Shown in pieces: positions 2,575 through 51,755 of a stretch of DNA of 64,000 bases (positions are counted from its first letter, which is position 1; each line of letters opens with the position of its first letter). The DNA is from Flectonema sp. DT1601 (Eukaryota), in the NCBI GenBank assembly GCA_964019425.1, contig OZ025798.1, positions 992,001-1,056,000 of the forward strand. Reading direction: 5' to 3'. Made by a program: the position numbers and the translations under genes. The notes below the pieces were generated by a model. The model was given only the letters and a program-made list of their open reading frames with translations, was not told the origin of the DNA and did no database searches.

Positions 2575-5034
2575 ATGTTGAAATTCACAGTAATCCTATT
2601 GCTCTGTGCAGTAGGCGTGTTTGGTGCACCTTTTTCTCTAAATGTGACCAAAGCAGCTGGATGTGGTAAACAATCTCCTTATAAAATAGGAGAGAAGGTA
2701 AAGAGTAAAATAAAAATCCACGATCCTGTTACCGGTGAAGACATGGACAGAGAGTACATGATCTACATCCCTACGGGATACGATGAAACTGCTGAGTTGC
2801 CAGTGATGTTGGTATGTAGAATTTACATAGTAACTAAATAATACAAATATTTGTAATATTCAAAACAAAAACAGGTTTATCATGGATGGGGTTCACATTG
2901 GACGACTTCTCGTCAGGGATATCATCCCGTTGGGGAACCAGGTATGGAATTTAAAAATTAAATCATCACATTCAATTCTTATTCACACTTCTCTTTGTTT
3001 TCTCCTTTCTTAAATTAAAAGTTGGTTTGACTTATCCTAACTTGCTCGACCAGATTGAAGAACTGATGTCAATTATTCGAATTAATCATCGATTATGTGG
3101 AAGAATCTCCGAATAACAAAGAGAGTTGTAAAACTAAGTCACCTTCACAAGAATGATGGCGAGGCATGCACACTACTAAAAGAACGATTGCCTGCAGCAT
3201 TCTGTACCCGCGGAAGACATCGAGAACAAGAACGGTTTCAAGAGGTTAGCAAACTACCACAAGAAATAGAGAAATTAGTGAACGAAGGCTACGAAGTTGG
3301 AGAAATGACGCTGAGCTGTGCCATAGCACAGTGCAAACGTTCTAAAGTGGGGCAAACTACTGGGTTGGAACAAGCTTTTAAAATATTAGATAAAGCATCG
3401 AGTCTAAAGATCCCCCACGACTCTGAAAGAATAAAGACTTCAATTATATCTGTGGCGTCATCAATTGGTAATTTAGAAACCTTTTACATCACCGTTAAGA
3501 AACTTGGTATTAATATGTCGAAACCATCAATTGTAGTAATAGGAGATCTGTTGAAAACTCTTTCTATTTGTAAAGCTCCATGGGAAGATATTCAGAATGT
3601 CTGGAAAGATATTGAAGAAGCGAAACTTCAACCAACAATGCAAATTTTCCACGCGATGATGAAATGCTCTCGTACGATATCTCAAATGACGTGGGTATTT
3701 AACACCCTGACTAAGTATGACTACGAACCTGACGTTAACATTATCGGAGCTGCTATTGCAACAGCTGGTGTTGCAAAACGTTTTGACGTCGCTGGAATGT
3801 TATACAACAAATGCTTGTCTGATAATCATCTTCAACCCAACATGTACGTTCGAACATCACTGCTATACGCTTCAATAAGTTGTAAGGGTGAGAGTGGTAT
3901 TGACTTCGCTATTGAACAGATTGAAAAGAACTTCGAAATTACACCATCGACACTACAGCTTATTATCTCTTCTCACCCATCATTAAAATCTGCATCATCT
4001 TTGCTAAAAAAATATAATAGTATCGCTGATGACAAGGTGCGAAGAACACTTGAATGTCGCAAATCAAAAGATAAACATATTAAAGCTAACCGAAGAGTTA
4101 CTTTACAACAATTGCGTTCTAAAAGTAGTTTAAGAAAAAGCATCTCAACTAATGAAAGCAAATCTAAAAAGAAAACCTCCTCCTCGATGACTCTACTCTT
4201 CAACATGACAGCTCCAGATTAAATTAGGGAAGGCGGAAAAAGCAGCGATCACAACAACTGAAAACAAGAAAAAGAATAAAATAAAAAATAAAAAAAATAA
4301 AAAGAAGACAGAGCTAACAATACAAAACATAAACAGATAAATACATGACCATCTACGTCAAGGGTATGGATGATATGTCTGGATTCGGTTCAAAGGTTTC
4401 TTGGAACTGTGGTAATGCAGGAGACTTAGTTTCGTGCACATCAGAAGCAAATGGAGATTGCTACGACAGTTGTAACAAGATTGGTAAATGTAGTCGATGC
4501 AACAGTTACACTTGTGTTGACGATGTTCACTTTACAAAACTACTACTGGAAAGGATCCTTAGTGAACTTTGCATTGATACCAAGCGTTTGTACGCAACTG
4601 GATACTCAAATGGAGGTCAATTCATGTATGACCTCGCTTGGGGTCTTCCAGTTTTCGCAGCGATTGCACCACTTTGTGGAACTCCTTTTGCAGGTAATGT
4701 CAGAGTACCAAATCAAATTGAAGAGACGGCATTAGTTCACCTTCACACTACTGGTGATAAAACTATTCCGTACAACGGAGGTGTTTCATACGAACACTGG
4801 ACATACACCGCTGTTAAAGATATTACAAGAATGTGGGCTGATGTCCATTCCTGTTCCGATAAAGAAAAACCACTTCAAACACCTTGGGATGGTAAGGATG
4901 AACTCTCATGTCACGCCTACATGTGTCCAAGAGACAGTGTTGTTCATTGCAGTATGTCAGGAGGACACACTCACTTCCCTTCTTGGGGATATGCGTTTAA
5001 CTGGTGGGCTCTCAGTAAGTACGTTAGAAAATAA
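2575..5034 (+). CDS. Secreted alpha/beta-hydrolase of the LpqC / PHB-depolymerase-like esterase family, 333 aa, 3 exons
   Basis: Exons 2575-2811, 2875-2941, 4337-5034 join in frame (phase 0, then phase 1 G|AT=Asp), giving LPVMLVYHGWG and GEPDKYMTIYVKG. Signal peptide MLKFTVILLLCAVGVFG; nucleophile GYSNG; Asp motif HTTGDKTIP; His in GGHT. Confidence 0.85.
2812..2874 (+). other. Spliceosomal intron 1 of esterase (63 nt)
   Basis: GTATGT ... CAAAACAAAAACAG; removal restores the xxHG motif. Confidence 0.9.
2942..4336 (+). other. Spliceosomal intron 2 of esterase (1395 nt), hosting a nested same-strand ORF
   Basis: GTATGG ... ACAAAACATAAACAG; phase-1 junction keeps the frame into the 4345 ORF. 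Confidence 0.8.
3095..4222 (+). CDS. Pentatricopeptide-repeat-like protein (375 aa), intronless, nested in esterase intron 2; possible mitochondrial presequence
   Basis: ~35-aa periodic helical motifs (KPSIVVIGDLLK, LQPTMQIFHAMMK, YEPDVNIIGAAIA, LQPNMYVRTSLL); basic N-terminus MWKNLRITKRVVKL; pyrimidine tract ~2975-3011 upstream. Confidence 0.7.
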   Translation: MWKNLRITKRVVKLSHLHKNDGEACTLLKERLPAAFCTRGRHREQERFQEVSKLPQEIEKLVNEGYEVGEMTLSCAIAQCKRSKVGQTTGLEQAFKILDKASSLKIPHDSERIKTSIISVASSIGNLETFYITVKKLGINMSKPSIVVIGDLLKTLSICKAPWEDIQNVWKDIEEAKLQPTMQIFHAMMKCSRTISQMTWVFNTLTKYDYEPDVNIIGAAIATAGVAKRFDVAGMLYNKCLSDNHLQPNMYVRTSLLYASISCKGESGIDFAIEQIEKNFEITPSTLQLIISSHPSLKSASSLLKKYNSIADDKVRRTLECRKSKDKHIKANRRVTLQQLRSKSSLRKSISTNESKSKKKTSSSMTLLFNMTAPD

Positions 5035-5568: not shown

Positions 5569-7830
5569 ATGGCTCTCTTAACAGGAGAGTGGATTGATGA
5601 TGTGTATAGAAAGATTCATGCTACTCTCACTGGAGATAAAGGTGAGCCGGATGAAGATTTAAACGGCTCTCCTGATGAAGAAGAAAAAACAATAAAACCA
5701 TGTCCTAATTCAGTATGGTCTGAAACTGAGTACGAAGAGTTAGGATGCGCATTGTGGGAGATGAAAGACTTATTAGGAAATAATATCGCATACTTCTCTG
5801 GCATCGATGAGGTAGAAATGACAAGAGTTCTGGCTCTGATCGCAACTGAGTGGGCGTTGTTAGAGGAAGGGTGCTTATCAGTCGCACGCGCTGCATCCCG
5901 TCACGACGCCGACCCAACAATGCCTGGAAACGGATATCGCTCACTGTTATCAATAATGCTTGCAGCAGTGTATAAAACTATACCTCGATTAAAAGATTGC
6001 TGTCGACAGAGAGAGAGTCTTCTATTTAATAAAAATGTTCACATTACCGACCTAGACGACTACGGACAAATCCTATCCCTTCTTCGTAAGATGGTACAAT
6101 ACGCTGTAATGGCAGATAGTATTAGTTGCCGTAATCATTTGTTCTTACCAGAATCAGAAGCTGAGTTAGAGAAGCAATCGATTCAACAATTTGGTGAGTT
6201 CGACTGCAGCTGTTTTTACGGTCGAAGAGCTGCATTCTACTGCGATCCTAAAATAAGAGCTGCTCTGTCTGTAATTATAACAGCAATGGCAGGATACGAT
6301 GCCGGGTTTCACTCAAGTGCGAATACTGATCAACAACAGCAGCACCAACAAGAAGACGAAGTTATTGAAGAAGACGACGATGACGACACTGAATTGCCGG
6401 TTCAGCAACAGCCAACAGAAGTTGACATTCAAATAAAAACAACAAAAGACGGAGCGAAAGCAGTCATGAAGGGAGTCGGATATTGGATAAATCCAAAATC
6501 ACGAGCAGAAAGTTTAATAAAACGATTCCGATCATGTGACATACCATTTGCTAAAGGGTTTTGGGGACTAACAGAAAGTGCACCTTTAGCTCAACACACT
6601 GGTTCTCTTATCAGTCCATGGATGGCAGTAAACAGAGATATTAAGATTCCAATTACAGAAGAAGATATCTTAACATGTTTTGATGATGGTCCCTTTGGAC
6701 CATTACTCGCAGAGGCAGTCTCGTCGCCACTTGACCAACTCCCTTCAGTTGAAAGACGTGTCTCTGCTGCTATCGATAAAGATTTACTAAGTGAGATTGA
6801 GATAAAACAATTTAATCAAATTATTTCAAAAAGAAAAGGAATCTGTACGACCGTAACACCTCTAGACACTCCGCTACGTGAGTTTACTAAATTAGTACTG
6901 AAATCGGTTGGTGATCCGTTTCCGTTTGTTGATAGTGGACTCGGTTATGTACAGGCACAGTTACTGAATCATAATGGTGATACACAGACGACACCTAGAA
7001 CACCAGGTATTATTATTCATTTTCATGGAGGTGGATTCGTTGCTCAGTCTCCCAAAAGTCATGAGATATATCTCAGGCGATGGACTAAAGAACTTGGAGT
7101 TCCCATTATATCTGTTGACTATTCACTTGCTCCTGAAGCGTGGTTTCCAAGAGCTGTTCAAGAATGTTTTTTTGTATACAAGTGGGTCATTGCTAACAGA
7201 GCCGCCCTCGGTGCTGGTCCTAAGGGTAGAATCATTCTAACAGGAGACAGCGCTGGTGGTAATCTCGCTGTAGGCGTTGCTTTAAAATCTGTTATCAGCG
7301 GCATACGTAAACCAGATGAAGTTGTAGTGTCATATCCAGTATTAAATGTGAAATTAGCTGCTTCACCAAGCCGGCTTATGGCAATGTTAGACGCATTGTT
7401 ACCGATGGGATTACTTGAGTGTTGTTTAAAGGCTTATACAGGTAATCGACCTTCTTCTGAATATTCTCCTTTGATGTCACCGTTGATAGCATCGGATGAT
7501 CTTTTGAAGCAATTTCCTCCAATTAGAATTGTTGCTAGTGAGTTCGATCCGCTACTTGATGACTCAGTTGTCTTTATTCGAAAACTTCGTAGTATGGGAC
7601 TCGATGCTACCATTGATATCGCACCAAAAATGCCTCATGGGTTTCTAAATTTAGCATACCTGGGAGGAGGTACTGACAGCATATCTGCTGTTGGACTTGT
7701 GGTGAATCACTTAAGCAAAGCTCTTCAGGGCAACACTAGTAATGATGACGTCGATATAATTGATCCTCCATCAGTTCTTACGGCAGGGGGTTCAGTTGTG
7801 TCAACCAACAGCGGTTGGTTCGCACCGTGA
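5569..7830 (+). CDS. Hormone-sensitive lipase-like hydrolase (HSL N-terminal region plus abhydrolase_3 domain), intronless
   Basis: HFHGGGF, GDSAGGNL, DPLLDDS, PHGFL motifs; GNGYRSL and FYGR in the HSL N region; ATG 5569 follows pyrimidine-AG at 5558. Confidence 0.9.
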   Translation: MALLTGEWIDDVYRKIHATLTGDKGEPDEDLNGSPDEEEKTIKPCPNSVWSETEYEELGCALWEMKDLLGNNIAYFSGIDEVEMTRVLALIATEWALLEEGCLSVARAASRHDADPTMPGNGYRSLLSIMLAAVYKTIPRLKDCCRQRESLLFNKNVHITDLDDYGQILSLLRKMVQYAVMADSISCRNHLFLPESEAELEKQSIQQFGEFDCSCFYGRRAAFYCDPKIRAALSVIITAMAGYDAGFHSSANTDQQQQHQQEDEVIEEDDDDDTELPVQQQPTEVDIQIKTTKDGAKAVMKGVGYWINPKSRAESLIKRFRSCDIPFAKGFWGLTESAPLAQHTGSLISPWMAVNRDIKIPITEEDILTCFDDGPFGPLLAEAVSSPLDQLPSVERRVSAAIDKDLLSEIEIKQFNQIISKRKGICTTVTPLDTPLREFTKLVLKSVGDPFPFVDSGLGYVQAQLLNHNGDTQTTPRTPGIIIHFHGGGFVAQSPKSHEIYLRRWTKELGVPIISVDYSLAPEAWFPRAVQECFFVYKWVIANRAALGAGPKGRIILTGDSAGGNLAVGVALKSVISGIRKPDEVVVSYPVLNVKLAASPSRLMAMLDALLPMGLLECCLKAYTGNRPSSEYSPLMSPLIASDDLLKQFPPIRIVASEFDPLLDDSVVFIRKLRSMGLDATIDIAPKMPHGFLNLAYLGGGTDSISAVGLVVNHLSKALQGNTSNDDVDIIDPPSVLTAGGSVVSTNSGWFAP

Positions 7831-10974: not shown

Positions 10975-13027
10975 TAATCTAAAAAAATGGAAAAAAAAAA
11001 AAAAAACAAACTTTGAAAAAAAAAAAGGAAATTTTTTTTTTTTTTTTTTTTCTCGACGGGTTTCACTTTGTCATTTTATTTTATTATACAAAGTATGCGA
11101 AAATAAGAAGTAAATGTAACACCATTCGAGAGTATTTTCTTGAAGCACGCTGCTGCCTATTTTTTTTTTTTTTTTTTTTTAAAAAAAAGGAAGTGATGCA
11201 ATTTCGCTTTTTATTGGCTGGCAGTGTTGATTTCTTAGGATTGTTTTTTTTCTATATTTTTTTTCATTATTTATCTAAAACCGACAAAGTGTATCGTACA
11301 CACAATTAAGCTGTGTTACTGAATACTCGTTATCAATTTTTTTTTTTTTTTTTTCTCTTCCAAGTATGTAAGGCAACTCGAAGGTCTGTAGTTCACTGTC
11401 AGACTTTGGTACTCACTGTGATTTCGATTTCGAAGAAAAAGAAGTTTTGTTACCACTTTGTGGTTCCTTCATCAGATTGGAAGCTTTCTGAGTTTGGGAA
11501 ATACAATTATGAAAAAAGTAAAAAAAAAAGAATGTTATCGCACCTCATCGCACCTCATTCCAAAAACGTGGGTGTTGGAATTAATACTAGACACTGCGTA
11601 AGTTGTCTATTTTTTTTCATTTACGGGTTCATAACATCATTAGTCCATACATACACATAGTTGTTACCATCTCTCTCTCTCTCTTTTCTTTTTTATTCTT
11701 CCTGGTTTCTTATATTAATTCCGAAAGTGAGTAAATAAAAATATAAAAAATTAAAAAATAAATAAATTTGATACATCACGACCTTACCTGTTTTATTATT
11801 CTGGTTCAATGTGCGGAATGTTCAGTATATTTAAAAAGGAGGTTAGTTTTTCCAATCGTTGTTTTCGATTACTTAAATCCGTAAGTCATTTTGTGATTTC
11901 CGTTTTTTCTTTTTTTTTTCTTTTTTTTGATATTGTTTCTTTGATTGCGCAGAGAGGAAAAGAAAAAAAAAGGTATATCCCCCAGTAGCCAAAATCCCCT
12001 CTCCCCCCTCATCCAAGTCCCCCCTTTTTTTTTGTTTTTTTTTAACCTTCACTGCTAAGTGTGTTTAATCTCCGTTTTAAAAAGAAAAAAAAAAAAAAAA
12101 AAAAAAAGAACCAAAATCGAATCTAAGCCGGGATGATATTTGTCGTTCCGGTTATTTTGGTTTAATCCGATTTTAGCAAAGACTTTGTTTAAAATAACGC
12201 TCTTCATTCATTGCATAAGTGAATTTTCATAGTGAGGTATATTGCTTCACACCCCCCCACACGTCATTATTTGACTCTCCACTCTCTGCAAGCTACCCCT
12301 GTAGGATGATATCGTCGTTCTTCAGTTGCGCAGCTGCAGATATAATTTTAATTACTAGGCATTTTGCTTGGTCCTTTTGTTCGTGTATCCCTTCTCCCTC
12401 CCATGGTGTTTTCACTCTCCGTAAGTTACATTGGACAATCTTGTTTATTGTGCAGCTTTGGATTACTGAGCATTCTATAAGAATGCTTCATCGATTGGGA
12501 GGGAGTGCTGATGGGGAAAATTTCTTTCTTTTTCAGTTTTGAGACAATTCTAATATTCTGAAGTCTAGAACTTATGTTTATTTATTTATTTATTTTTAAG
12601 CCTCAAAAAAGATATTCGGTGAAGGCAAAAGACGATTTTTCTTTTTGTAAGGGTGCAATTATTTTTATGGGTTTTTTCAAACGATCCGTTCTGTGTCGCA
12701 GATATTTTGCGATTTCATACTCGTAGATTGGAAGAATAAATCTCAGCACCGTTTGTCTTTGTCAGTTTACCAAGTCTTAAGAAAGGAACGACACAGTCTC
12801 AGACTCAAACTGATAACTTCTACTTCTGTAGTTGCTGTGCTTCCTGACATTATTTATCATTTTTCTTTTTTTTTTCAATTAAGCCTCCCATCCCAGTTCT
12901 TTAACAAGAGGGAATGGAAAAGCCTTCGTTCTCATCTAGGAGACTTGTGATGTGCCTATTGCGTTACAGGCTGATGCGCACGACTCTTGGAGAAGGAGTT
13001 ATAGCGAGGGTGTTAAATTTCCTTCTC

Positions 13028-13060
<33 letters not shown>

Positions 13061-15364
13061 AATGCAATAAAGCCACTGGCAAAAGCAGATTTTTTTTTTA
13101 TTTTCCAAGCAACTTAAATTTATTTATATTTTTTTATATTGTAAGCACTTCTCAGTTGCAGCGGTTAGACAGTCACAGAGGCGCAAAAGGAAAAATTAAT
13201 CCTCAGACCTAATAAACTATGTGCGTGTGTGATACCTGACTTATATAAGACATCATTATTTATCCTACATACCTAACCATGACGTAACTTGAGATGAGAA
13301 TGCCGACATTTCTATCAACAGAAGCAAAAATCCTTCTCCTTGAAAAAAAAAAAAAAAACCAAAAAAAAAATTTCAACCAACTTAATTTTCTTTTTTCTTC
13401 TTTTTTTTTTATTCTTGACCAGCTATTGCTTGTTTAATCAGCTACGCCTTTATTTAATCATGGCTAGCGGTGGAGTATGTTTATTAGAGAGGATTACAAG
13501 TGCTAAAGATTGCACAGTTGTTTATTACCGAAACATATCATGCTGGTGAAGAAAATACATTAAAATTACTGAAATTCTTTTTTTTTCTTTTTCTTTTTTT
13601 TTTTCCCCACAGAATGTTTTTGTTGTTATTTTTATCATTATTTTCTGTGCTGTAGATGCGCTCAAGACACCTGTTGTCTGAGCATAAACCCGACACTCAG
13701 AGGAAGTCTTTTTGCTCATTTTTGTAGACTGCCTGAGAGTCACACTGGTGGTGTTAGGAAGAATCATGAAATACTTCGGAGGAAAAAAAAAAAAAAAAAA
13801 AAAAAAAACAACTGTAGAAAACTCCCGTGGTAGATTAAGCAACGGCTCTTTTTACGAGCGGGTACTTATGCTTTCCCCCCTTGGTACTCTTTCACATAGT
13901 GATGGTCTTTCTTTGGACCTGAAACTGTCAACAGATGTTGACGGACACATCAAGCAACATAATGAATGGACAAGTAAAGATTTAAGATAACATTTTTCCC
14001 GCCATTCGAGCAACGTCTTTTTACGACTTGATTCTGTTTTTTTTTATTTACTATTTTTTTTTTTTTTTTTTTTAAATATTTCATTCTAATTATGAGGCGT
14101 ATTTCAGTCTACGCGCAGATCTTTGTAGCTTTTAAGTTTCTTACTTTTTGGGGAAAAAAAAGATTCGCTATCAAAAGCTGAAAACGTCGATTTATACGCA
14201 ACCAATCTCGTCCTTTTGTTAGTACTACAGTCTTATTCTTATTTTGGTACTGTACGCAATTTAGTTGCTTTCTAGATGTCGGATATTGAACTGTATCACG
14301 CATCACACGTAGTTTTATTAGAAGGAATACATTGCTTTTGCTCGCATTATTGAACAGCATCAATATTGCTAACCTCACACCTCCTCATTTCACATCGCAC
14401 ACCCCTATAAGTTACTGTTATCATAAAATACTAACGTTAAATTTAGTTAAATCTGATACAATACATGTATTTATGTCTTTATAAATATGCTCAAACATTT
14501 TTTTTTTTTTTTTTTTACTTCCCTTTTTAAAGGCTGAAGTTTACCCGCTACTGGGATGAGACCAATTTTTTTTTTTTTTTTTTTTTTGAAATGCGCAATC
14601 AAAAGAAATAATGAAAAAAAAAAAAAAAAAGAAAAGAAACGATGGAGAAAAAAAAAAAAAAAAAAAAAGAAAAAAAAAACCCCTTGAAATGGTGTTGTGC
14701 ACTATTTCTTGGTCAAAAAGGAATAAGAAATTTACGTAGTGACTGACTCTATAATGGTACTGTGTAGCTGACTGATTGATTCCAGTACATAGTTCGTACG
14801 TATTTTAAAATGACAACAAGAGTAACAGAGACTGCCGGTGTTCTCAGTAAATCTGGTTGATGTAACCGGTATCTGTTTTTTATTTTTGTTGTTGTGTTTT
14901 TCATTATTCTGATTTCAGGTTTTTTTTTTTGTCGGTGGTTTTTCTTTTGTGTTCCCAGATTCGCTTCAAATTAATAATTAAAAAAAAAAAAAAAGCATTC
15001 TTCGTATCGAAATGTAATTCGTAAATCGTCTTACATATCAAATCAACATCAATATCACCCCTCTAGGTGGGTTCCTTCTTTTCAGAATGTTACTTATCTT
15101 TTGTCTATTCATCAGACGCACGATACATATTACTGTTTTACGAAAGTGTGATTCTGATTTTTCGAATCACGCTTTTTACGTATTTTTACTGATTGTATGT
15201 TTCTCCCTTTTCGACTCGCTACCACTAAAGCAATCGCAACTACCCTTTATGTTTGTTTTAAAAGGGAATAGTGGTAGTAATTATAGTTGGATTAACTTTG
15301 GGGATATACATTTTTGTAAAAACCTACCATCGTATGATGGATGTAATATGAAGTATCGTGAATG

Positions 15365-15404
<40 letters not shown>

Positions 15405-18400
15405 GATTTTCTCCCTGTGCTGATTTTCTAATTAGCACTTTTTGAATTTCGGATGTGATGTACTACTACAAGCCTACGTGGATTCGCTAGATGAAATACT
15501 CGTAGAGTTGAGCCCACCTACATGACGTTCGTTCAAATCGTGTAGTGTTTTTTTTTTTTTTTTTTTTTTTTGACCCCCCCTTTTTTTTTTGTTATGATGA
15601 ATATTGCTTGTTGCTGATATTGTTTTTGAAACGAAGATTGTCTTTTATTTTATATGGACGAACTGCCCCCAATTGGAACCAGAATTGAAAACATCTTATT
15701 ATCTCTACACTTCACATCCCCAATTCAGTTTCGTATGCCTGTCCCAACTCGGACTTTGCATCACTAAGACCAGTGGTAGTGGATTGCTTGCTGAGTCGGA
15801 TGCAAATACTGTGTTGCTGTGCAGGCAATTATTGCTATTTTGTGTTACTGCTGCCCTTGCGCGCTCTTTGAGTCCCCAGCTATTGGGACACAGACGTTGA
15901 AGGAGATGCTAGCGTGCAAGGGTTTCGTATTTTGTATTTTTTTTGCTTTGTTCATTTTTCTTTATTTTCTCCCTTTTGTTCTTGCTCTGCGCTGATAACT
16001 ATTCACCCCTCCCACTTTTTTTTTTTTTTTTTCATTCCATTATTTTATTATCCCCATCTTTTGTTGTCTTTTGCTTTTTATTCCATTTACTCTGACAAAA
16101 GGCATTTATTCTTTAAGCCATGGCTAAGGTCATGGCTGCCTATTGCGGTCATGTGTGAATTGTGTTCATCCCTCTTTGATAAAAAGCAGATTTCTTTTCT
16201 TTTTTTTGCTTCATTCCCTAGAACAAACTCCCTGCGAACAACTACATAAACTTCTTTTTTTTACTCCTGCCTTAAGACGACAAAGGAAAAAAAAAAAGAA
16301 GTACAAAAATAAAAAATGAAATGAAATGAAAATGAACATTATTATTTTTTTCCCCCTTTTTTTTTTCTCTCTATATTATTCTTTCTTTAAGTTAACCATC
16401 ACGCGCTGCATCGCCTGTTGGTTGTGTCATTGCGGGTTGCTTTATTCGAAAACTGTTAGTTTCTTCTTCTTTAGTAAATGGTTACTCCCTTATAAAATGA
16501 AGACGGGGGTAGTTTATTTATTTATATTTATAAGTCGATTATCGAATCTTCCTTGTGAAGATACTCCAATCTTTTTATTCGCTAGCTCTCTGACACTTGT
16601 TTTGTTATTATTAAAAAAAAAAAGAAAAGTTATATTTGATAATCATTTTACGTTCTGGTAGTCGAACATTTTTCCAATCACTGGTCAAGCATTTTCCCCG
16701 TAGTTCGACTTCCCTCGCATGCAATTGCTGCGGGCTTATGGAGGTAATTTTTTTTAAATTGAAGAGGAATAAAATAAATATCAAAATTTTTAAAGTAATT
16801 TTTTTTTTTTTTTTTTAGTATAGTAACAAGCTCAAAGTGCTGAGAGGCAGCCCCGAGTAGACTTTCTTATTACTGCAGTAGATAACAATTTTTTTTTTTT
16901 TTTTTTTTAAAGTTTGTGAGCTCCAGTTCAGTTAAGTACCTGACCTGCGAATTTCTAAGTGCGAACTGCCATGACTATTACAATCTTTGTGAAAACTGTT
17001 ATTTGTTTTAATCAATAGCGAAAATAATGAACACTCGCAGAGTGTCTATCAATGTTCACTTATGTATACAGTCAAAATCTGGCAACTTAAAGGTAACTAC
17101 TATTCTCTTCTAGTGAATATTTAGAATCAGATACTTTTGGAAATGTTAATTCCATGTCTTCCCTAATCCCGTACTCCACGGTAGTGGTGTCGGTTCTTGT
17201 TAGTTACCCAACTATGGAGGTGGGTGTTTTAATGGCAATCACCGCATGCAAATTGGAAAAAGAAAGAAAGAAACCTTTACGAATTCCCTCTTCCCGCGAT
17301 TTCTTTTTTTGCGGATTCCCTATTACCACTCTATCTTTTTTAGGAAATGCTCAACAGAATAAAATCACTTATTAAGTTTTTTCCAGTCTGATTTTTTCCC
17401 CCCCTTCTCAGCAAGCTTTGCTTGTGTTTTATCAGCTATTGTGAATTAGCATATCACGGTGATTAATTTATTCCTTATTTATCGCTATCCTAATCTTGAG
17501 ACCCGATATTTTAACAATTGTTACTCGGGTACTTCTTCTAGATCAAGTTGTGTCGTTTTTTTATTTTATTTTTTTTTATAATCTTTTTTTTTTTTTTTGC
17601 TTCTTAAGGTTTAATCTTGGAAGCTGTCGTCGTTGTTGATTTAATAAGTTGAAAACAAAACCTTAAGGTCTACTTCGTTTCCAACCAACGCAGCTGTTTT
17701 TAGGTAAAAATACAGCGCTTGCTGTAGAGGTTGTCCTACCACATCTGCATATGTTAGTCGTTTCCACTCTTTTATTTTTATTTTTACTCTTTTACTTAAC
17801 CCTAAAAAACCAGGTAACGTAGGAAAGATAAAAGTTATTGTCCTTTTTGATTTGTAAGGGAAAAGTAGTGTGTATGACTTAAAAATGACAGGGTAAACAG
17901 CCCCTGTCCACACTAAATTTCGCACCCAATGTTAGTTGAAAACCTGCTGTTGTATGCAGAGGACGTCGTTGTAACTTTCTTTGTGAGAGTTTTGGGTGTA
18001 GAATCATATTTTCCCTTTACCAATTTGGTGATTCCTGATTTTAGGGTTAATTAAGAATATTTTTTCTTTTTTTATAAAGCACGTTTATCACTGAGTCTTT
18101 GCGGATGCAACTTTCCCAGCAAAGGTCTTCTAGCAAATCACATTCTGCTGTGAAATAATTCCAGCTTCTATTCCACCCTTATTGGCCAGTCCAAATTCCC
18201 AAGAAAGTGCTACTCAAACAGCAAAAAAAAAGATGCCTTATTCACCCTTTTAAACCGCCTTTGAGTGAGTTTTTTTTCCTCCTCTAAAAGTGCTTTGTAA
18301 AGCAGACATCCAAGGGTGAAAAGGTTTTTTTTTCTTTTTTTTCTTATCACAGGAAGACACACGTAGTGATATTATAAAATTATAGTCACTCTTGACAACT

Positions 18401-20131
18401 CTTTGTCTTGTTTATGTCCTCCATATTATTGTTTATCAGCCAAGTACAGAAATCCGAAGGTTTCGTGTTTTTGGAATTTTCTTTTAAATAGTGTTCGTAA
18501 TTTACCCCCTTTTTTTTTCTTTCAATCACTTCCCTCCGGCCCGTTTTTCCTATTGTTTCAGCTTATTACATCTCTCGCGTTTTCAAGCTGGCAGTTCCAC
18601 AACTATGTGGTGTGTGCTTTGGTGGTGACGGTACACGTACTGTTGCTTGTAGTTACAGACTGGTAGACTTAGTATTTAGCCTGCAAGTAGCAAATTCACG
18701 CTTTATACCCGCAGTGGCAATGCCTTCGGTCTCGAAGCTCACATAGAAAAAGACATAACGAAATGAACATCATAAGCGGCAATTCTTAATCATCGTTGTT
18801 GAGCATTGATGATGGTGATCAACTTTAATTAGTATGGCAATGTTTTTTTTTTCTTTCTTTTTCCTTCCTCGAAAAACTATATTATTTTGCCTTCTTTATT
18901 ACTCGATTGGTTGCAAAACCGACCTGTTCCTTACAACGATTGTTGTATTTTTTGATTTCATTATTTTCTCTCCCAACCTTACTTTTTTTCACCCAACCCA
19001 CCCACTCCGCCCTCTGTTGTTTTGCGCACAACACAAAAGCAAAAGTGTGAGAAAAAAAGCATTTCATTTGATTCTGTTGGCCGTTCTTTTTTAGCACACT
19101 GGTGTGCTTGCTTGCGATACTTTGCCTATAATTATCCTCCCAAGTGGGTGGTGTGATGTTTTCTATGTTGTTAACAGAAAATAGGATCAAGAGTAGTTAC
19201 AACCCTCTCGGATAGTTATGGGAAATCACTTGCGACAGTAGTGTCCTTCATATCACTGGAAAAAAAAAAAACTTTTGATTACTTTTAAGTCTTTTTTTTT
19301 TAATTTTTTTTTTTTTATTCTTTCCTCCCCCCACCTCTTATTTTATTACAGTTTTCCAACCCAAAACTCCAGGAGATTGGTTTGCAGACAAGCGTGCACC
19401 TTTCTGAAAAAGATTTGATACGATTTCAGAAGCTGACTTTTAAAGTAAGACAGTAAAGCGGTGTCGATAACTTACCATCCCCGAAAGTGAAAACATTTAT
19501 TGCAGTGGTCTTTGAGAATTTTATTTCTTATCTCAAGGTTGCATCAATGTTTTTTTTTTTTTAAATTTTTTTTTTGGTTTTTTTTACTTGCAAAAAAAAC
19601 TAGTCTCTACTTCAACTCGTCGTAGTTGATATTTTAGTAATGTTTTTTTTTTCCTTTTTCTTTTCGTTTCTCCTCTTATTCTTTCTTTTCAGGGTTAGAC
19701 GCTAGCAGAGCCATACTTAATCGTATTACCGTTTGTGAAGATAGACGGCGAATACCTTTTTTTTTCTTTCTCGTTTTTTCCCCCCTTCATTGTTACAATT
19801 TCTACAATGTTGTGACCACATAATTTACTAAAAAACAACAACAAAAACTAAAGTGTTGCTTTTACATATGAGAAATGGTATGGTAGTGTCAAGCTTTATC
19901 TCCGAATGGTACACTCTATTGAAATTTAAAATAATATAATGCATGTAGTCTAACTGACTTTGTATGACTCTTACTTAGCTGATCAGTATTTTCGTAGATG
20001 TGCTCATTTTTTTTATTTTTTATGTTGTTTTTTCCCTCTTTGTAAAAAAGAACGAAAAAAAAAAAAAAAAAAACTAGAACTAAAAAAAAAATTTAGGTAT
20101 TCGTCACCACCATAAAAAAAATCAGTTTTTC

Positions 20132-20162
<31 letters not shown>

Positions 20163-21528
20163 ACGGAAGTGATTTTACTTTTATTTTTTGTTAAGTTAAT
20201 GCTCTTTCGGTTAAGATTTTCATGCTTTTAAATTGATTTAAAAAGGGAAGGTACAAAATACTTCCTAAAGTAGACTCTATCGTTTGTTTGGATTGTTAAG
20301 CAGGTACTGTGTTTGATGTCTTGTGCCGTACATTATTTTCCTTGACTCGTTAGCCTCTATGAGCGATTGTTATTGCAGGCGTTTTTCGATACATTTCGAG
20401 TCAGAAAAAAAAAATTAAAAAGTACAGTTTTTTCATTGTGAAATTAGTTCGTTCTTGTTAGTAAATTAAAACCAGAAAATGATACTTTTCATCGTCGTCT
20501 CATTCGAACTAACACTTCCATTAGTAGTTTATTATAGTTGATGAAGTGTCAACCCTCTATTCGTTTCCCCTTCAGATAATTAGATCACTCTAATACTCAA
20601 TTATTAGAGTGATGTTATTCCATAGACTATTCGTTGCTGCTGCGCATGTACCGTTCAAGAACGTCGGCAGCTTGAAGTCTTGGTCACTATCAGACTTAAG
20701 TTTTTACCGATTAACGAAGTCTACGGTGTTACTTTTCCCTTTTATGTTTCTTCTTCTTGCAATTGCCTTAAAAAGCTATTTATGGACCAGTCTTTCGTGT
20801 TGTAGCGTGAACTGTGTTGGGTTTTCCTTGCTATTGTACTGTAGACTTAGTAGGGTCGGTCGCATAAACAACGAATTTCAGGAATCCATCGTTCTGTTTT
20901 TAATGGCAATCCATTTTTGGCACTTTTTTTTTTTTTTTTTTTTTCATTTTTTTTTTCAATAATCTTAGAGAGACTTTAATTTAACTTTTTTGTCTTACAT
21001 TTATTTCGACAGTTCTCGTTTTTTTTTTTTTTTTTTTTTTTCGTATAAGGTTTTCACAGACTGTTTTGTCGCCACGGTAGTGTACTACTGCCGTTTGAGA
21101 CGGAGCGAGGATATTAGGGAAGACAGTTTCTCGCAATCCACATCTGATTGTTTTGCGCTATTGTGGCGCTTCACGACAGGTTTTTCTGCAATCAGCTCAT
21201 TTAGTGCCTTCCCCCTAGTTTTTTTTCTTTCTCCTTTTCAATATTATTTTTTTTCCTCGTTTTCTTTGCCAGCCATTGCTTGCCATCTCATTACCTCATC
21301 AAAATATAGCCTCCTTCCCTTCCCCCCTGTCCTGTCTTCTCTATACTGCGTAGGGTTGTAGCAGTCCTAACTTTTGCGGGACAATGTGAATGACTTAGTA
21401 AAGTGACGTCAAGTAATTGTTTTTTTCTTCTTACAGTCTTCATTGAAATAGCGGCCAGTTCGTTTGTTTTTTACTGTTTAGAAGTGTCATTAAGATAAAC
21501 TGTTTTTGTCCTCTCTCAGTTTCAAATA

Positions 21529-24500: not shown

Positions 24501-25722
24501 CCTCTCACAAGCACTTCATTGTTTCAGTTCGATGCCGGACGATCCAGCAGCAGATATGAACAAAGCAGCGATTACGATGAATTTGGGTAATCTGATGCAA
24601 AAACTCGCCGCTGAAGAGGCCGATAAAAAGAAAAAAGACGAAATTGTATCATCAAGAGAAGAAGGATTCGTCAACAAGGCAATTTCTTATTACACAGATG
24701 CGGTTAAGTTACTGGCAAGCCAATCGGAAAAAACAGTTCTATACAATGACGCCTTGAAGAACAGTGCGAAGGCACAGGCACAGCTTGCAATTCGATACAA
24801 ACACCATTTCAAAGAATTGGTTAGAGAACAGCCAGAGATTGATTACGAAAAGAGAACTTCTGATCTTCTTTTGTCAGCACTCAAAACCTTTTCGGTATGT
24901 ATTATATCATTTTATGTGATATCTGAAATTAATAATCACTTTATCAAACCACACACACAGAGCATCCACGATACAGCAGACGAAGCCTCTGCATATGCGC
25001 ACCTTGCACAACTTCACAGAATAACTCTTTCCTTGGACTACGAACCACCTAGTTCTGACTCTGAAGGACTAGCTAAACGTAATGAGCAACGATTTCGATT
25101 ATCTGAAATGTATTTTGGAAAAGCTAACTCATACTATTCAAACATAAGAACCGATCCGATGTTTTTAAAGCTGAGAATGGAAGTCACTCGACTACATATG
25201 GATCAGCGTATGTTAATCCTTTTCATTTAACTTGTTTGGTTCTTTTTACATTTAAAAAAAAAAAAAAAACAGTTGCTCGCTCTAACAGAAAAGAACAGTA
25301 TCTCAAAGTGGTGATCCGTACCTTGTTAGGTATGCTGCCGTTCTTGCAGGCATCGAAGGCTAAATTTAGCGAAGATGAAGTGTTCAAGAATGAATTGAGT
25401 TTGGTATGTATTTCTTATGTAGAAAAAAGAAGAAAATAGTTTAATTTCAATGAAACAAAACAAAACAAAACAAAACAAAACAAAACAGCTTCACACCCTC
25501 CTACAAGACATTCTTAAGAACTCGTTACTGATTCACTCAGAGAAGGAGAGCAATTCATCTCCTGCGAAAAACTCTCACAAGTTAACAAAGCAATCTGCTG
25601 CAAGACTAAAGCCTTTTGAAGAGGCTAAGGACTTGTATTCGAAGGCATTGCAATCAGAGACGACGTTTGATACCGTGGTTGACCTTATTGACTCAATTAG
25701 TAAATTATTTATTCGAGAATAG
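21529..25722 (+). CDS. EDRF1: EDRF1 (erythroid differentiation-related factor 1)-like protein with N-terminal SAM domain and TPR-like C-terminus, 4 exons
   Basis: Exons 21529-24894, 24961-25207, 25273-25403, 25489-25722. SAM: WTSLEVAAYL...FIREEINGIILVNLTKEELK. EDRF1 motif LEYWVDNVMNNVPQVAICYHKDGITQGYQL. Confidence 0.8.
25454..25488 (+). repeat. (AAAAC)n microsatellite forming the 3' end of an intron
   Basis: aacaaaacaaaacaaaacaaaacaaaacaaaacag. Confidence 0.9.
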
Positions 25723-29574: not shown

Positions 29575-30657
29575 ATGCAATACGGAGGACATCAGGCTCC
29601 AATGCAACAGCAATACCAACACACGCAGCAAGTGCAGCAACAAATGTGGCAATGGTATTCACATGTTGATAGAGACAGAAGTGGAAAAATTGATTACAAA
29701 GAATTGAAGGCCGCACTTGCACAGGCTGGACTTGCTTTCTCATTGATGAGCACCCAAATGATGTTGAGGCTATTCGACGCGACGAAGACTGATAACTTAG
29801 ACTTTCAAGAATTCCAGAACCTCTATGGATGGGTTCAACAGAAACAACAATCATTCTTCCACTTCGACAGAGATAGGTCTGGTTTTTTGGATACTGCTGA
29901 AGTCTTCAATGCTCTCAAGCACGCTGGATATGGATTAGATCAGCACGCATTCTACGCTTGTATAAAGGTATGCTATTACTGTTATCACATTGTATCTGAA
30001 TCTGAATCTATCACATGATGACAAACTACTTTCTATATTTCACCTCTGACGCTTTGAGGAGTTGGGCAACCTTCTCTTTTGATACGAATAACCTTTTTAA
30101 CGTCTAAATATCTGATTTTCAATTGCCTGGCAGCTGCTGTTATAATTCTTTAGCTGATTTATACATGATGACACACTACTTTCTATATTTCACCTCTGAC
30201 GCTTTGAGGAGTTGGGCAACCTTCTCTTTTGATACGAATAACCTTTTTAACGTCTAAATATCTGATTTTCAATTGCCTGGCAGCTGCTGTTATAATTCTT
30301 TAGCTGGTTTATACATGATGACACACTACTTTCTATATTTCACCTCTGACGCTTTGAGGAGTTGGGTAACCTTCTCCTTTGATACGAATAACCTTTTTAA
30401 ACGTCTATTTGACTGATTATCTTGCAAACTCGACTATGGATTTGTCACAACTCTCCTTTCTATTTATTAACACCAATATATCAAATCAGACTTACGATCC
30501 TGACCGTAACGGAAAACTAAGCATGTCAGAATACGTTGGTCTTTGTGCCTTCCTTCAAATCACATACAACACGTTCGCTGCTTTTGATACACAAAGAAGT
30601 GGACGGGTCAATCTTGATCTCAACCAGTTCGTGTATTCCGTTGCGCAGTGTAAATAA
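29575..30657 (+). CDS. Penta-EF-hand protein (ALG-2/PDCD6-peflin-sorcin family), 2 exons
   Basis: Exons 29575-29967 and 30490-30657; EF loops DRDRSGKIDYKE, DRDRSGFLDTAE, DPDRNGKLSMSE, DTQRSGRV; Gln-rich N-terminus. Confidence 0.9.
30015..30115 (+). ncRNA. Box C/D snoRNA candidate, copy 1
   Basis: C ATGATGA 30015-30021; D' CTGA 30046-30049; C'-like TGAGGA 30055-30060; D CTGA 30112-30115; D' guide complementary to the conserved SSU rRNA motif AGGUGAAAU. Confidence 0.65.
30165..30265 (+). ncRNA. Box C/D snoRNA candidate, copy 2
   Basis: Same boxes shifted by +150. Confidence 0.65.
30315..30416 (+). ncRNA. Box C/D snoRNA candidate, copy 3 (diverged next to box D)
   Basis: C 30315-30321, D' 30346-30349; D CTGA kept at 30413-30416 although adjacent bases differ. 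Confidence 0.6.
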
Positions 30658-31379: not shown

Positions 31380-34300
31380 ATGAGTGTTTTTGGCAGTCAT
31401 CTTGTACCAGTACCTCCATCCCGAGAAGAAAGAAACGACAGCTATGCGTCAAATCGAAAAGTATCTGTTGTCAGCTTTACTGATAATAATAATAATCACA
31501 ATCTCTCTAAAAATCGATCATCAATCGTCAACTCTGAAGGTGCTACATCACGAGCTGCATACGCAAGATCTAGAGCAAGGAGAAAAGAAATAAAACGGAG
31601 TTTAAGTGAAGGCGGAGGTGAGGGAGAACGAAGGCTCAGAAAATACGTAACGGGTAAGAAAAATTTCCCAGAAAGTATAGTTGATCAGAAAATAGTTGAA
31701 CTACTTGGAAGGTCGTGTTCCTTAGAAACAGGAGCGAGGTCATCAATATCTGCAGCGACAGTTGTAACTGAAATCCATCACTTACTATCGCGGCAAGTAT
31801 CTTCAATGGCTCAGCTTTGTTCTGAAGTATGGGACCCAGTTTATGAAATCCTTCGTATAAATGACACGGTAACCGATCTGGATCCAAATAGCACTATTCC
31901 TGCTCCAAAGAATGTTACTTTTTGTTTCCTCGATCTGTTCTTTACCCAATTCTTCAAACATCATTTCAGTGACTTGCCAGCACATTCCAGTGGTCATTTA
32001 GGACTACTAACAGAAGTACTACTAAAGGAACAGAGAAATAAAGATCTCCTTCAGGAGGGTATTGAAGAGGTTCAAAGAGAACGAGAACAAACCGACACAT
32101 TAAAATGTTTAAACGAACTACTAGTAGAACAGAGCGGAATTATGAAGAAGAAGATTGTAATTGAAACATCAGAGGTAGAGATACAGACTGATCCAACTCC
32201 TCCAGATCCGACTTTGAAGAAAACGATTGACTCTCTGAATGTTCAGCTAATGGTGCAAAGGACGAGATTCAAAATTCAGTCTGAAAAGCTTCACAACGAA
32301 ATATGGGAACGGGATGCGGAGCTTGCGAAGTTAGAGACGAAATGTGTTAAACTACAAACACAAGTTGAAACGATTGCTAAGGATACTCTGACAATGAGAT
32401 TAGAGAACACTACTAACGTATCAGTGCAGACCTTACCAATGCAATCACAGTTCAAAGGTAACGAAACAGAAGTTTTTGAAGACATCATGAACTTCTCAAT
32501 GCCTTCTGACATTGATGACTTCTCAAAAGCAGAATCAGAAGTAGTTTCTTCTCAAATCGACATCTACAACGACCCAGATTTAGTTCGTCTACAAGCTCAA
32601 ATCCTAGCAATTAGACAAGTAGCTCCGAGTGGTTCTGTTGCTTTAGTTTTTACAGACGTCCAGTCTTCCACATTCCTCTGGAACCTCTCACCAACTGCAA
32701 TGCGAATAGCCATCAGAGATCACAACAAGATGATGAGGGCTAATATAAAAGCATATCGAGGCTATGAAGTAAAAACTGAAGGAGACGCCTTCATGGTGTC
32801 ATTTCACACAGCTCTGGATGCCTGCAGATGGTGTTGTGAAACGCAAAAGGAACTTCTAGACCTTCCATGGCCTGAAGAAATACTTGGAGCTGAAGACACA
32901 ACAGATGAAGTATATGATGAGGAAGGTGTTATTGTCTTTAGAGGAATTAGAGTTCGAATGGGAATCCATGTTGATGAACCTCTTTGTGAGGAAGATCCAA
33001 CAACCTTGAGAACTGACTATTTCGGTCCGGTGGTCAACTTCGCTGCTAGAGTTTCATCAAAAGGACGAGGTGGTGAAATTGTTATCTCCCGCGAAGCATA
33101 CGACGACCTGAAAGACTATTTGGGTGACGAGTCTCACAAATACATCGACTGCGGCGCTCACATCTTCGAACTGGGTGTCTTCGAATTAAAGGGATTTTCA
33201 GATGGGGTGCTACTTTGGCATATCTTCCCAACTTGTCTCGTCACTCGTAGATTTCACTTCAAAAAAGAAGAAGCACCAGCCCCAGTGATGATGACGAGCA
33301 AAGTACCAGCTCCAATAGGTGAGATATCACTAGTTTTTACTGACGTCCAGAGCAGTACTTACTTGTGGAATGAAGCGACCGACGGGATGATAACTGGACT
33401 TGAAGTGCACAACGTTAGCTTGAGAGCTCTTATGATTGAAACTAATGGTTATGAAGTAAAGACTGAAGGAGATGCTTTTATGATTGCTTTTGAAAATGCT
33501 GACGACGCAGCGAGGTGGTGCATGCAAGCTCAGTTGATACTTTTATCTCTCAATTGGGATGAACACTTACTAACATTAGACGTTACGAAACCGAGAGATA
33601 GATCTGACGGAGGAGGATACATGTGGCGTGGGCTCAGAGTTAGAATGGGGATTCACGTTGGAGTTCCACTTTGTCAAACAGATCCAACGACTGGTAGGAT
33701 GGACTACTTTGGTCCAGTTGTAAATAAAGCAGCGAGAGTATCAGGTTGTGGACACGGAGGAGAAACTGTGGTCTCTCGTGGTGTTATTGATTTATTAGAA
33801 CATCTGTTCCACACAGATGATATTTGTGATGGTGGTATCACAACTAACATCCTCCCTCCTCGTAATTTAAAAGGTTTTGCTGATGATGAAGTTCTTACTG
33901 CCATGGTCCCTACTGTTCTCGCAGAGCGATACGATGAGTTCGTTCACGTAAAGCCAGAACCTAAAGTAGTAGAGTCTCAAGAGTTAACAGCTGAACAAAA
34001 ACAAAAACTTGAAGAAATCGAACAAAAACTAAAACTCGCCGACATGAATGCACCGAAAGGCACCGTAACACTAGTATGCTCAGCTGTAACAACTGGTGGG
34101 TTATGGAACAGTGCACCAGAAGCCATGACAGAAGCAATTGATTTACTTGTGTCATTATATCACTCGTTATTATCAAAGTACAATGGATACATCGTTAGAA
34201 TAGATGGCGATGCCTTAGTGGCTGCTTTCCACGACGCCTTGCCTGCTGCGCGCTTTTGCATCGAATTGCAAGTATCTGCTCTGGAAGTAGATTGGCCAAA

Positions 34301-37300
34301 GAGTATTCTAAACCACGCTGGTATCACTGATACTATTTTAGATGAATCAGGTAATGTTACTTTATGGCATGGATTACAAGTGAAGGCTGCAATGTTTAAG
34401 GGGAAACCATTGACTAAGAAAGACCCAGTAACATTGCGAGTAGACTATTACGGACCAGCAATGCAAGCAGCAACTGAATTAACTAAAGTAACCAGAGCAG
34501 GTGAAATTCTAACACTTGGACAGACTGCTGAGGAGATTATGAACGAAGATCCGGAACTTGATGTGCAAATAACATCTCTTGGGGAGTTGAGCCTTCCAAC
34601 TGAGAAGTCAGCACAGCAGATGGTCAGAATATTACCATCATCCTTAGTAGGTAGAGCTGCTCACTTACAACAGATTGAAGCAATAGATGACGGGAGGTTT
34701 GACTCAAAAACTAGCGGGAAAATAATGAAACTACCGAGTGGTGATGTTACCATCGTATTCGTTGACATCGAAGGATCTTTAATACTTTGGGAGGAATTCC
34801 CTCGAGAAATGGAACTAATATCTTCGACTAAAAATAAAATATTCACAGAGTGTGCAAGACTCTACCAGGGCTACCAAGCTGTTAACGAAGGCGATGGGTC
34901 TATGTTAGTATTCGCAACAGCAAAGGATGCCTGTAGATGGTGTTTAAACGTTCAGTTAAGAATGATGAAGGCTGAGTACCCGGATGAGATCCTTGAACAA
35001 CCATCAATATTATTCACTCAAACACTTCACGATGACAATGATGTTATCCTACTACGAGGTATTAGACTTCGAATGGCTATTCACGGAGGTATCGTCATAT
35101 CATCCCACGACGATACGACAAACAAAATGACGTATAAGGGAATCTGTATAAGTAAAACAGCTGACATTCTTGATCGGGCTTTGGGAGGTCAAATACTTTG
35201 TCTAAAATCATTTTCAGAAAGAATCGAATCATTTCTTCCGATATTAGTAACTGGAGGGGTAACAGCATCACCTATTCCAACACAGACAATCGGTGATGAG
35301 ATGTTGGTCTCTCTCATCCCAACACCTCTCTTAGGACGTGAAGCCGCATTGCAAGATGCACCCAAAGCAAGTCTTCCCAAAGTTGAAAGGAGGTTCTTTA
35401 GATCAGAAATGACTCCTCAGCAGTTAAAAATCCTCGAAGACATAGAACTAAACCTCGCCTTATCTAATGATAACGCTATTAGTTCAAAGAAACTTGTATT
35501 GTGTTGTATCGACATCGCAAATTCGAGACATCTTTGGAACACGGATGCGTCAAAAATGAGAATCGCTTCTACCCAGTACTGCTCACTTGTCAGAACTCTT
35601 GTTAAAAAACACGGAGGGAAAATAGGTCGAGTTTTTGGATGTGCGTTCTTAGTTCTTTTTGACAAGGCTCAACCAGCTTTGGAACTGTGCTTAGCTTTGC
35701 AAACTAACAGCGTGGGGATGAAATGGCCTGACCAGTTTGGAGACGAGCCTGTAATTCAAAATGCAGAGACAATATGGAACGGCCCTCGACTTCGTACGGC
35801 TGTTGGCATTGGGGAACCAATTATAGAATGTACAGAACATGGAATCAGCTTTGCCATGGGATCGGATATGGGAAATATAATCGATATTTCCTGTAGGGCT
35901 CGAGGTGGTGAAATTATAGCCAGGCGTGAGATTTGGCAACACTTTTCAACATCGATGATGTCTTTAATAGCGATTGCTCAGAAAGATGATGTTGTGATTC
36001 TACTACCGGCAGCATTGAAGGGTCGACAGGGACAATTAGAACCACTCATATCAAATGAAAATCCATTCGAGAGATTCATTTATCGACCAGCAAAAATACC
36101 AACAACACCATCGGTTCTTGTCGCAATTAAAATATGCAGTTCAATCCCAGACCCATCTCTTCATATGGAAACAGCCTTGGAATTCTTATCAGCTACAGAA
36201 AACCGTCAACACACAGTAGTCTATGAGGGGAGTTGTGTTGTTCAAATTTGGTCGGATGCAAATAAACTGATGGAGTGGATTAGAAGTTTTCAAACCGAAA
36301 ATATAAAATTCAAAGTTGGGATTAACTTCCTGGGGATCCCACCTGGGCCGTCAGGTGAGGACAAGGTGTGTAGTCCTGGAGGGGAATTCTTAAAGACAGC
36401 TTCAAAACTGTGTGGATACGCTCACTCTGGTGAAGTTCTCTGTTCGTCTGATTCCCTAAACTTTTTATCTCAATCTTTAAAAGAATATCAATTTCACTGT
36501 ACAGATACCGAGATCGAATATTGTCACCGGATAACAGAGTCTGAAGAAAGATCCTCAGCCTTCATCGATATTCCCCGTAAAAAAGAAGCTCCTTGGTTTG
36601 CTTTTCACACCAAGGATATGATCCGCAAGAAACCGAAAAAGAACAAAGAGCAAAGCGTTCTTTCAAAAATAGTTGGCGCGACATACAACCAACGCTTTAC
36701 TATAATGTGTGGGACGCTGGTAGTCCTGAGGAGCTTAGAAAGTGATTGCATGGCGTGTTGTGATCATGAATTATTAAAGAAACCTCCTCGTTCTAATGAA
36801 GCGTTTCATTTACTGTCGACTCATTATCGAGCAATTGATCAAATGTTAGAAGGTCCAACTTCTATACATTTTATAGAAGATATGAAGGTAAAGTCTCGTC
36901 GATTAAACGCAATCGTACAAGACCGCAGCCTCGCCAAAGCAGTTCACAATTATAAGAAGTCCGCTGAACTCCGTGCGACCAAACTCTGGTTGTCATTTTT
37001 ACAACTTCGAAAGAGCACTTCCGACAAGGTCCGACCTCCTCATGAAGTTCTTCTATTCTTACATAAAAAGATTCACAGATTTGTAGATGTTGCGAAGGGA
37101 CTTGCTCAACTACCACCAGAAGGTCAGAATGTTGAAGAACATCAGACTAAATTTATTAAAATGTGGCTTCCTGAAATAGAAGGACCACAACCTGAAGAAC
37201 TAATTCGTCAACAAAGTGAAGAGAAGGCTTGGGATTCAAACTTATCAGCGCTTCGTGAGAATAGAGGTACATCAAAGTCTATGATGGATGTGATCGATGA

Positions 37301-39792: not shown

Positions 39793-40150
39793 GATTGCAC
39801 ACAGTTTTGTTGTGTTTTCTACGTTAGTACAGTCCAAGTCTGCAAGTATATGAGCTGTTTCGTTATGTTAAGATTTCGTACAGGACGAAAGTTGATTTTT
39901 CAAAAATTCTAGACAGTCTGGTTCTGGTTGAGATCAGAAACTCAAAGTGTTCATTAGGTTAACACAACTTACAGTCAATGGCTGATCAACATTTATGATG
40001 TATTTATTATTGTGGGACATATACTCTTTCTTAACACAACAGATGGAAGTCAATGATGAAAATATTCTGAAAGAAATAGTAGACAATATAGTTGTGTTTT
40101 CTTTGAGTAATAAAATAATATTTTACAGCGATCACAAATATCCAACAGAA

Positions 40151-51747: not shown

Positions 51748-51755
51748 TCTTTTCT

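Follow-up and report, generated by a model that had tools for sequence, protein, structure and literature searches.

How can a protein gene that lies wholly inside an intron of another gene be expressed in a lineage whose genes are not switched on one by one? Euglenozoans lack gene-by-gene promoters, so an intron-nested gene cannot be activated alone, and on any one RNA molecule the spliceosome has to opt for either cis- or trans-splicing. This question is raised by a locus of Flectonema sp. DT1601 (GenBank assembly GCA_964019425.1), situated at positions 2575–5034 of the window, by which we mean the whole stretch of DNA analysed here (64,000 nucleotides (nt), positions 992,001 to 1,056,000 of contig OZ025798.1, forward strand). 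In this locus, a complete gene for a PPR-type protein lies on the same strand within the predicted second intron of an intact esterase gene, and the single precursor is probably processed in one or the other of two mutually exclusive ways. The features of the locus, in window coordinates, are as follows.

2545–2567, + strand: putative spliced-leader acceptor of the esterase gene; U-rich, 15 of 20 pyrimidines upstream, AG ending at 2567, 8 nt before the ATG
2575–2811, + strand: esterase exon 1; 79 amino acids (aa), a hydrophobic N-terminus (signal peptide judged by eye), followed by the initial strands of the core; alignable with the N-terminal region of homologs P0004–P0006
2812–2874, + strand: intron 1; 63 nt, from GTATG to an A/C-rich ACAG
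2875–2941, + strand: esterase exon 2; 22 codons plus 1 nt, bearing the conserved HG motif
2942–4336, + strand: predicted intron 2; 1395 nt, phase 1, from GTATG to ACAG, hosting the PPR-type gene
2971–3060, + strand: pyrimidine tract (19 of 20 pyrimidines at 2992–3011) and candidate spliced-leader acceptors (AGs ending at 3021, 3053 and 3060)
3066–3116, + strand: out-of-frame upstream open reading frame (uORF); 16 codons, C at −3, overlapping the start of the PPR-type gene
3095–4222, + strand: PPR-type gene, intronless; 1128 nt, 375 aa, degenerate PPR, basic N-terminus, predicted mitochondrial
4223–4336, + strand: A-rich stretch; 71 of 114 positions A (62%), ending in CTAAC (near 4314) and a cis-type acceptor, with no pyrimidine tract
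4337–5034, + strand: esterase exon 3; GxSxG (Ser codon 4606–4608), Asp and GGH motif; predicted second role as the 3' untranslated region (UTR) of the PPR mRNA

The host gene

The initial annotation had joined three exons in frame into a 333-aa hydrolase. All of its coordinates were reproduced: the joined exons span 1002 nt and form one uninterrupted frame of 333 codons closed by a stop. The exons on both flanks of intron 2 form one intact protein that is colinear with its homologs, and the alignment with P0004 (residues 35–313, 30%, E = 8e-36) spans both exon junctions. Exons 1 and 2 alone match the N-terminal region of three of five homologs (E ≤ 3e-4). The Ser, Asp and His motifs all lie in exon 3 and indicate an alpha/beta-hydrolase relationship, while the HG motif of exon 2 is presumably part of the oxyanion hole.

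Exon 3 matches two feruloyl esterases in the PDB (8jh8 and 9j07, E = 7e-9 and 3e-8) and a model of PHB depolymerase-type esterases (PF10503, NF050058 group; E = 2.5e-12), and a protein atlas also places it in the PHB depolymerase/feruloyl esterase group. The protein differs from these enzymes in a Cys-rich insert, shared with P0004, and its family matches, confined to exon 3, score far under the curated cut-offs (46.8 of 150 bits for NF050058; 21.8 of 107.85 bits for TIGR01840). By these similarities, the host is an esterase that probably belongs to the PHB depolymerase/feruloyl esterase group. Its earlier description as secreted agrees with the hydrophobic N-terminal stretch of the intact protein.

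A 229-aa entry in the protein collection (P0003) represents a fragment of the esterase at this locus and raises the alternative of three separate genes, namely a 107-aa product of exons 1–2, the PPR-type gene, and a 229-aa esterase fragment receiving its own leader at 4336. An in-frame ATG does follow acceptor 4336, and isoforms in which the leader is joined to exon 2 are known for trypanosomatid intron-containing genes (PMC11613528, excerpts). However, exon 3 lacks the N-terminal strands and the HG motif of its homologs, both of which exons 1–2 supply in order and in frame, and the sequence upstream of 4336 contains 9 pyrimidines in 42 nt, unlike the fronts of genes in the window. We consider separate genes highly improbable.

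The inner gene

As in the initial annotation, the 1395 nt of intron 2 wholly contain an open reading frame (ORF) of 1128 nt, which runs from the ATG at 3095 to the stop at 4222. A stop-free run of 375 codons would arise by chance at this composition with p ~6e-9. Codon bias values of the two ORFs (0.180 and 0.122) compare with 0.068–0.183 in 10 other genes of the window, and their shifted frames (−0.076 to 0.002) fall outside the range of the window genes. The protein is conserved, with relatives in two diplonemid transcriptomes, the closest being from Flectonema neradi (56% over 95%), followed by one from Rhynchopus humris (E = 5e-11). A further relative, the assembly protein P0032, is close to the R. 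humris protein. These relatives indicate that the DNA is likely from a diplonemid. All three relatives carry a Met within 2 residues of ATG 3095, and this ATG has A at −3, as do 13 of the 14 other starts picked in the window.

The claim of PPR-like repeats, for which a hidden Markov model search had been proposed as a check, was borne out by a profile and the predicted fold but not by standard models. Pfam returned no PPR family for the ORF at E ≤ 1, and NCBIfam was likewise without a PPR match; a custom 35-residue PPR model built from 23 motifs gave the ORF 1.0 bit, against 5.9 for the best shuffle, with 107 of 200 shuffles reported. Among the relatives, the F. neradi protein reaches 22.1 bits for PPR_3 (cut-off 25), and the R. 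humris protein has no Pfam PPR match. On the other side, all six non-diplonemid phmmer matches carry Pfam PPR domains, and a four-sequence profile searched against the PDB recovers a designer PPR (E = 8e-14) and maize PPR10 (6e-8). The predicted structure is all-helical (mean predicted local distance difference test score, pLDDT, 78.7), with helix pairs 32–36 residues apart whose first helices begin at residues 111, 146, 182, 214, 250 and 284; the top Foldseek matches of this model are PPR proteins (E = 5e-7). Judged by profile and modelled fold, degenerate PPR protein is the best name for it.

The first 20 residues contain 6 K/R and no D/E, and 108 of the 121 PPR proteins of D. papillatum are predicted to be mitochondrial (PMC12699882, excerpts), which together make a mitochondrial RNA-binding role likely. 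The D. papillatum proteins were found partly through relaxed and lineage-specific profiles and are candidates for guiding RNA joining and editing, according to the same excerpts. Our searches recovered no D. papillatum ortholog of the inner protein, and neither an ortholog identifier nor a motif was found in three supplements of PMC12699882.

Upstream of ATG 3095, the short out-of-frame uATG at 3066 noted in the initial annotation is present and opens a 16-codon uORF. In T. brucei, about one in ten 5' UTRs contains a uORF that is translated and reduces expression (PMC6597758, excerpts), and by analogy this uATG would be at most a damper. The idea that translation really begins at this uATG, put out of frame by an error of one base, was set aside on account of the Met positions of the three relatives. 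Two further observations concern this region. The uATG lies 32 nt before the aligned Trp codon, compared with 33 nt for the upstream Met in the F. neradi record (P0002); coincidence, an ancient frameshift or an assembly error of one base could each account for this. In addition, residues 1–42 of P0002 form an N-terminal extension that resembles translated T-rich upstream sequence, so the transcript may include unprocessed precursor.

A one-way gene cluster

The initial annotation had stressed the same-strand nesting, most nested genes being antisense to their host. This emphasis does not hold: all 17 stop-free frames of at least 200 codons in the window lie on the + strand, and human nested pairs comprise 75 parallel and 152 antiparallel cases (PMC2330155, excerpts). 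In a one-way cluster same-strand nesting is to be expected, and the surprise lies in the processing conflict. The window thereby matches D. papillatum, in which genes occur in co-transcribed one-way clusters and a spliced leader is present on essentially every mRNA (PMC10161547, excerpts).

This arrangement also bears on whether the PPR-type gene might have its own intronic promoter, in the manner of ordinary animal nested genes, so that no choice of route is needed. Parallel nesting is common in human, as the 75 pairs show, and in Amphidinium 25% of genes are nested (PMC12584245, excerpts). Co-transcription of diplonemid genes in one-way clusters, as in the window, speaks against such a promoter, as does the distance of only ~80 nt from the donor to the first candidate acceptor; its existence seems very improbable.

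Two predicted types of 3' splice site

In the window, 15 candidate donor regions were tested for frame continuity; one, near 49377, lacked a clear acceptor and did not enter the model. The cis-acceptor model was built from 13 predicted introns (2812 to 63943) other than 2942–4336. Of these, 12 measure 63–101 nt, and one is 522 nt long with a 150-nt tandem repeat. Their acceptors are A/C-rich (on average 11.8 A and 4.5 T per 20 nt), with little pyrimidine tract, unlike the AGs fronting the window genes, which are U-rich.

On this model, the acceptor at 4336 scores 19.0 bits, ranking first of 85 AGs in 2942–4400 and third of 3836 on the + strand; on the minus strand, 1 of 3919 AGs reaches 19 bits. 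Donor 2942 is the best donor in 2875–3100 (score 5.3), and GTATG, with which it begins, is the conserved kinetoplastid donor (PMC11613528). When seven AGs were tried with this donor, only 4336 gave a long frame (333 aa), the other six giving 102–132 aa. An esterase–PPR fusion by cis-splicing to 3021, 3053 or 3060 was rejected, as all three frames stop early.

The inner gene has a front of the other type. The pyrimidine tract and the AGs at 3021 and 3053 reported in the initial annotation are present, and a further AG ends at 3060; none occurs between 3061 and 3100. The AGs at 3021 and 3053 (15 and 14 of 20 pyrimidines) resemble the pyrimidine-rich AGs that front 15 genes, and on the cis-acceptor model the three score −6.3, −6.4 and −21.4. 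Because the two types of 3' splice site differ in composition, cis-splicing could pass over the inner AGs. At its 5' end, intron 2 shows less structure than shuffled sequence (z +1.9), so the inner acceptor is not hidden by folding.

Two side observations concern the introns of the model. The 522-nt intron (29968–30489) belongs to the gene of an EF-hand protein and holds 2.6 copies of its 150-nt unit at 97% identity. One cis-intron acceptor is a pure AAACA repeat (25453–25487).

Probable exclusive processing of one precursor

The anatomy of the sequence, the identities of both proteins, the conservation of the PPR-type protein and the splice-signal scores are established; splicing, leader addition, poly(A) sites and the exclusivity of the two routes are what we infer from them, as we do the mitochondrial location. 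The precursor is taken to be polycistronic. In the first route, donor 2942 would be cis-spliced to the A/C-rich acceptor at 4336, yielding the 333-aa esterase and discarding the PPR-type gene with the intron. In the second, one of the U-rich acceptors, 3021 or 3053, would receive a spliced leader, yielding the PPR mRNA and separating exons 1–2 from exon 3.

Measurements in trypanosomes place poly(A) sites upstream of the active pyrimidine tract, ~100 nt away in T. brucei (PMC6597758). Under this rule, cleavage of the host in the second route would fall within or close to exon 2, with loss of the upstream piece. From the PPR stop to 4336, no 20 nt hold more than 8 pyrimidines, compared with 16–17 of 20 after 5034; as this part of the intron offers no tract, the PPR mRNA would run on through exon 3, carried as its 3' UTR, to the pyrimidine tracts after 5034. 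For the same reason, an exclusive choice is favoured over two mRNAs from each precursor.

The latter possibility, which the initial annotation had entertained, is that a leader is spliced onto the excised intron at 3021 or 3053 and a poly(A) tail added in the A-rich stretch downstream of 4222. As a rule, excised introns decay rapidly. The entire PPR unit would fit between the donor and the CTAAC near 4314, and the 62% A content of 4223–4336 accords with the preference of trypanosome cleavage sites for strings of A (PMC6597758). Nevertheless, with no pyrimidine tract after the PPR stop in the intron, the coupling rule places no poly(A) site there, and under co-transcriptional processing (PMC6597758) transcription would reach the inner acceptor 1.3 kb ahead of the outer one. 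Such a double yield is thus less likely than the exclusive choice, and we regard it as improbable.

Several points weigh against the exclusive choice as well. The 2941/4337 junction and a leader site inside the intron are predictions from DNA. The 13 model introns were predicted from frame continuity and the gene-front AGs were picked for their pyrimidines, so that the contrast between acceptor types is partly circular; several short introns also hold pyrimidine runs (20–25 of 25). Two GT sites inside the PPR ORF, 3715 and 3695, outscore donor 2942 (8.2 and 6.5 versus 5.3). Every candidate leader site (3021, 3053 and 3060) lies upstream of the uATG at 3066. The esterase start has C at −3, as does this uATG, where 13 of 14 other picked starts have A, and the codon bias of exons 1 and 2 alone is 0.078 ± 0.062. 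The poly(A) placement rule is borrowed from trypanosomes, a sister group. Finally, the six matches of the esterase search include no diplonemid relative besides the window's own fragment.

This last point also favours a different account, in which the esterase was recently disabled when a PPR cassette landed in its intron, so that trans-splicing always wins and only the PPR-type protein is expressed. A strong pyrimidine tract 30–70 nt past the donor fits this account, as longer tracts splice better in trypanosomes (PMC6597758), and intron 2 is 14–22 times as long as 12 of the 13 others. Against it, the 333-codon frame is open throughout and retains the Ser, Asp and His motifs, and very few AGs in the window score higher as acceptors than 4336. 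Neither the PPR-type gene nor the esterase has a second close copy among the matches listed; the lack of a PPR parent there argues, weakly, that the move was not very recent, given that cut-and-paste leaves no parent. We judge a disabled esterase unlikely and retain exclusive processing of two apparently intact genes as the probable state of the locus.

Origin of the nesting

With the cassette removed, at boundaries of our choosing, intron 2 is reduced to stubs of ~34 and ~36 nt. Together these match an ordinary intron in length, which suggests that the nesting probably began with the insertion of a PPR cassette into such an intron, ~70 nt long, that was already present. No terminal, target-site or flanking repeats stand out around the cassette, and Rfam gave no match in the window. 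Marks of a mobile-element or twintron-like passenger were looked for and not found, the inner ORF being of PPR type, with no transposase, reverse transcriptase or endonuclease ORF. Metagenome scans for the locus gave 496 pattern matches with the PPR alignment and 23 with exon 3, of which none was confirmed in either case.

The nesting could also be an artefact in which an assembly error joined a PPR locus into the esterase intron. The window is rich in homopolymer runs, and the nesting is known from one assembly. Yet no flanking repeat is long enough to cause a misjoin, and the contig extends over 320 kb, with nearby ORFs of more than 2000 and more than 3000 codons unbroken. We give an assembly error very little credence.

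Comparison with known systems

Nested genes of animals are generally driven by their own promoters. In contrast, both genes of the window likely derive from one polycistronic precursor, for which they would compete. What the locus shares with parallel nested genes of animals (PMC2330155) and with nested genes of Amphidinium carterae (PMC12584245) is a whole protein gene in one intron of an unrelated host. Dinoflagellates likewise use a spliced leader. For A. carterae, the excerpts of PMC12584245 give neither orientation nor processing route.

Trypanosomatid introns provide a second comparison. Trans-splicing at and inside cis-introns occurs in T. brucei and L. mexicana, with an intra-intronic site in L. 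mexicana PAP1, and the PAP1, RBP20 and DBP2B introns resemble intron 2 in their GTATG donor and in addition of the leader at the intron acceptor or inside the intron (PMC11613528). There, the products are truncated host isoforms, and the sole intron passenger described in the excerpts of that source is a non-coding RNA. The inner acceptor of the window would instead launch a complete, unrelated and conserved protein. Our literature search, which did not extend to the supplement of the D. papillatum genome, found no complete protein gene nested in a euglenozoan intron except transposable-element ORFs in long D. papillatum introns.

A nematode case is also relevant. Morton and Blumenthal reportedly described in 2011 a C. 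elegans operon gene inside an intron of another, where cis-splicing competes with 3'-end formation plus trans-splicing to make the choice. Nematode operons have promoters, AAUAAA signals and SL2, unlike euglenozoans.

Implications

Same-strand nesting itself is already known; the interest lies in the likely cis/trans conflict between two apparently intact genes and in the two types of acceptor. With two unrelated products encoded in 2.5 kb, the locus is a small natural reporter of how one spliceosome separates cis from trans acceptors, and the window suggests a candidate answer in A/C-rich versus U-rich 3' sites. It also carries a warning for annotation, having been recorded as a 375-aa ORF and a 229-aa fragment and not as a 333-aa esterase.

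A broader proposal, to which we give only a slim chance, is that two acceptor codes in diplonemids let genes ride in the introns of polycistrons, and that the excised intron is leader-spliced and polyadenylated so that two unrelated mRNAs result. If true, this would be a protein-coding counterpart of intron-encoded small RNAs, and the rescue of an excised intron as mRNA would constitute a route of gene expression for which we found no published report.

Neighbouring features of the window

Other parts of the window yielded further observations. A region of ~10 kb (11000–21400), rich in poly(A) and poly(T) runs, is without a frame of 200 codons in an otherwise dense one-way cluster. At 49940–53700, a near-identical block of ~1.7 kb is duplicated, as judged by eye, with copies from near 49960 and 51760; it contains an intron-like segment running from GTATG to an A/C-rich CAG and no long ORF. 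A Cys-rich frame of more than 3000 codons occupies 39986–49465, and its 3' end, which lacks a clear acceptor or stop arrangement, is possibly spliced further or broken. At 31380–37640, an intronless gene encodes a 2086-aa protein with several adenylate/guanylate cyclase domains (three stretches pass). The gene next to the esterase (5569–7830) encodes another alpha/beta hydrolase, a hormone-sensitive lipase (HSL) homolog with an HSL N-terminal domain.

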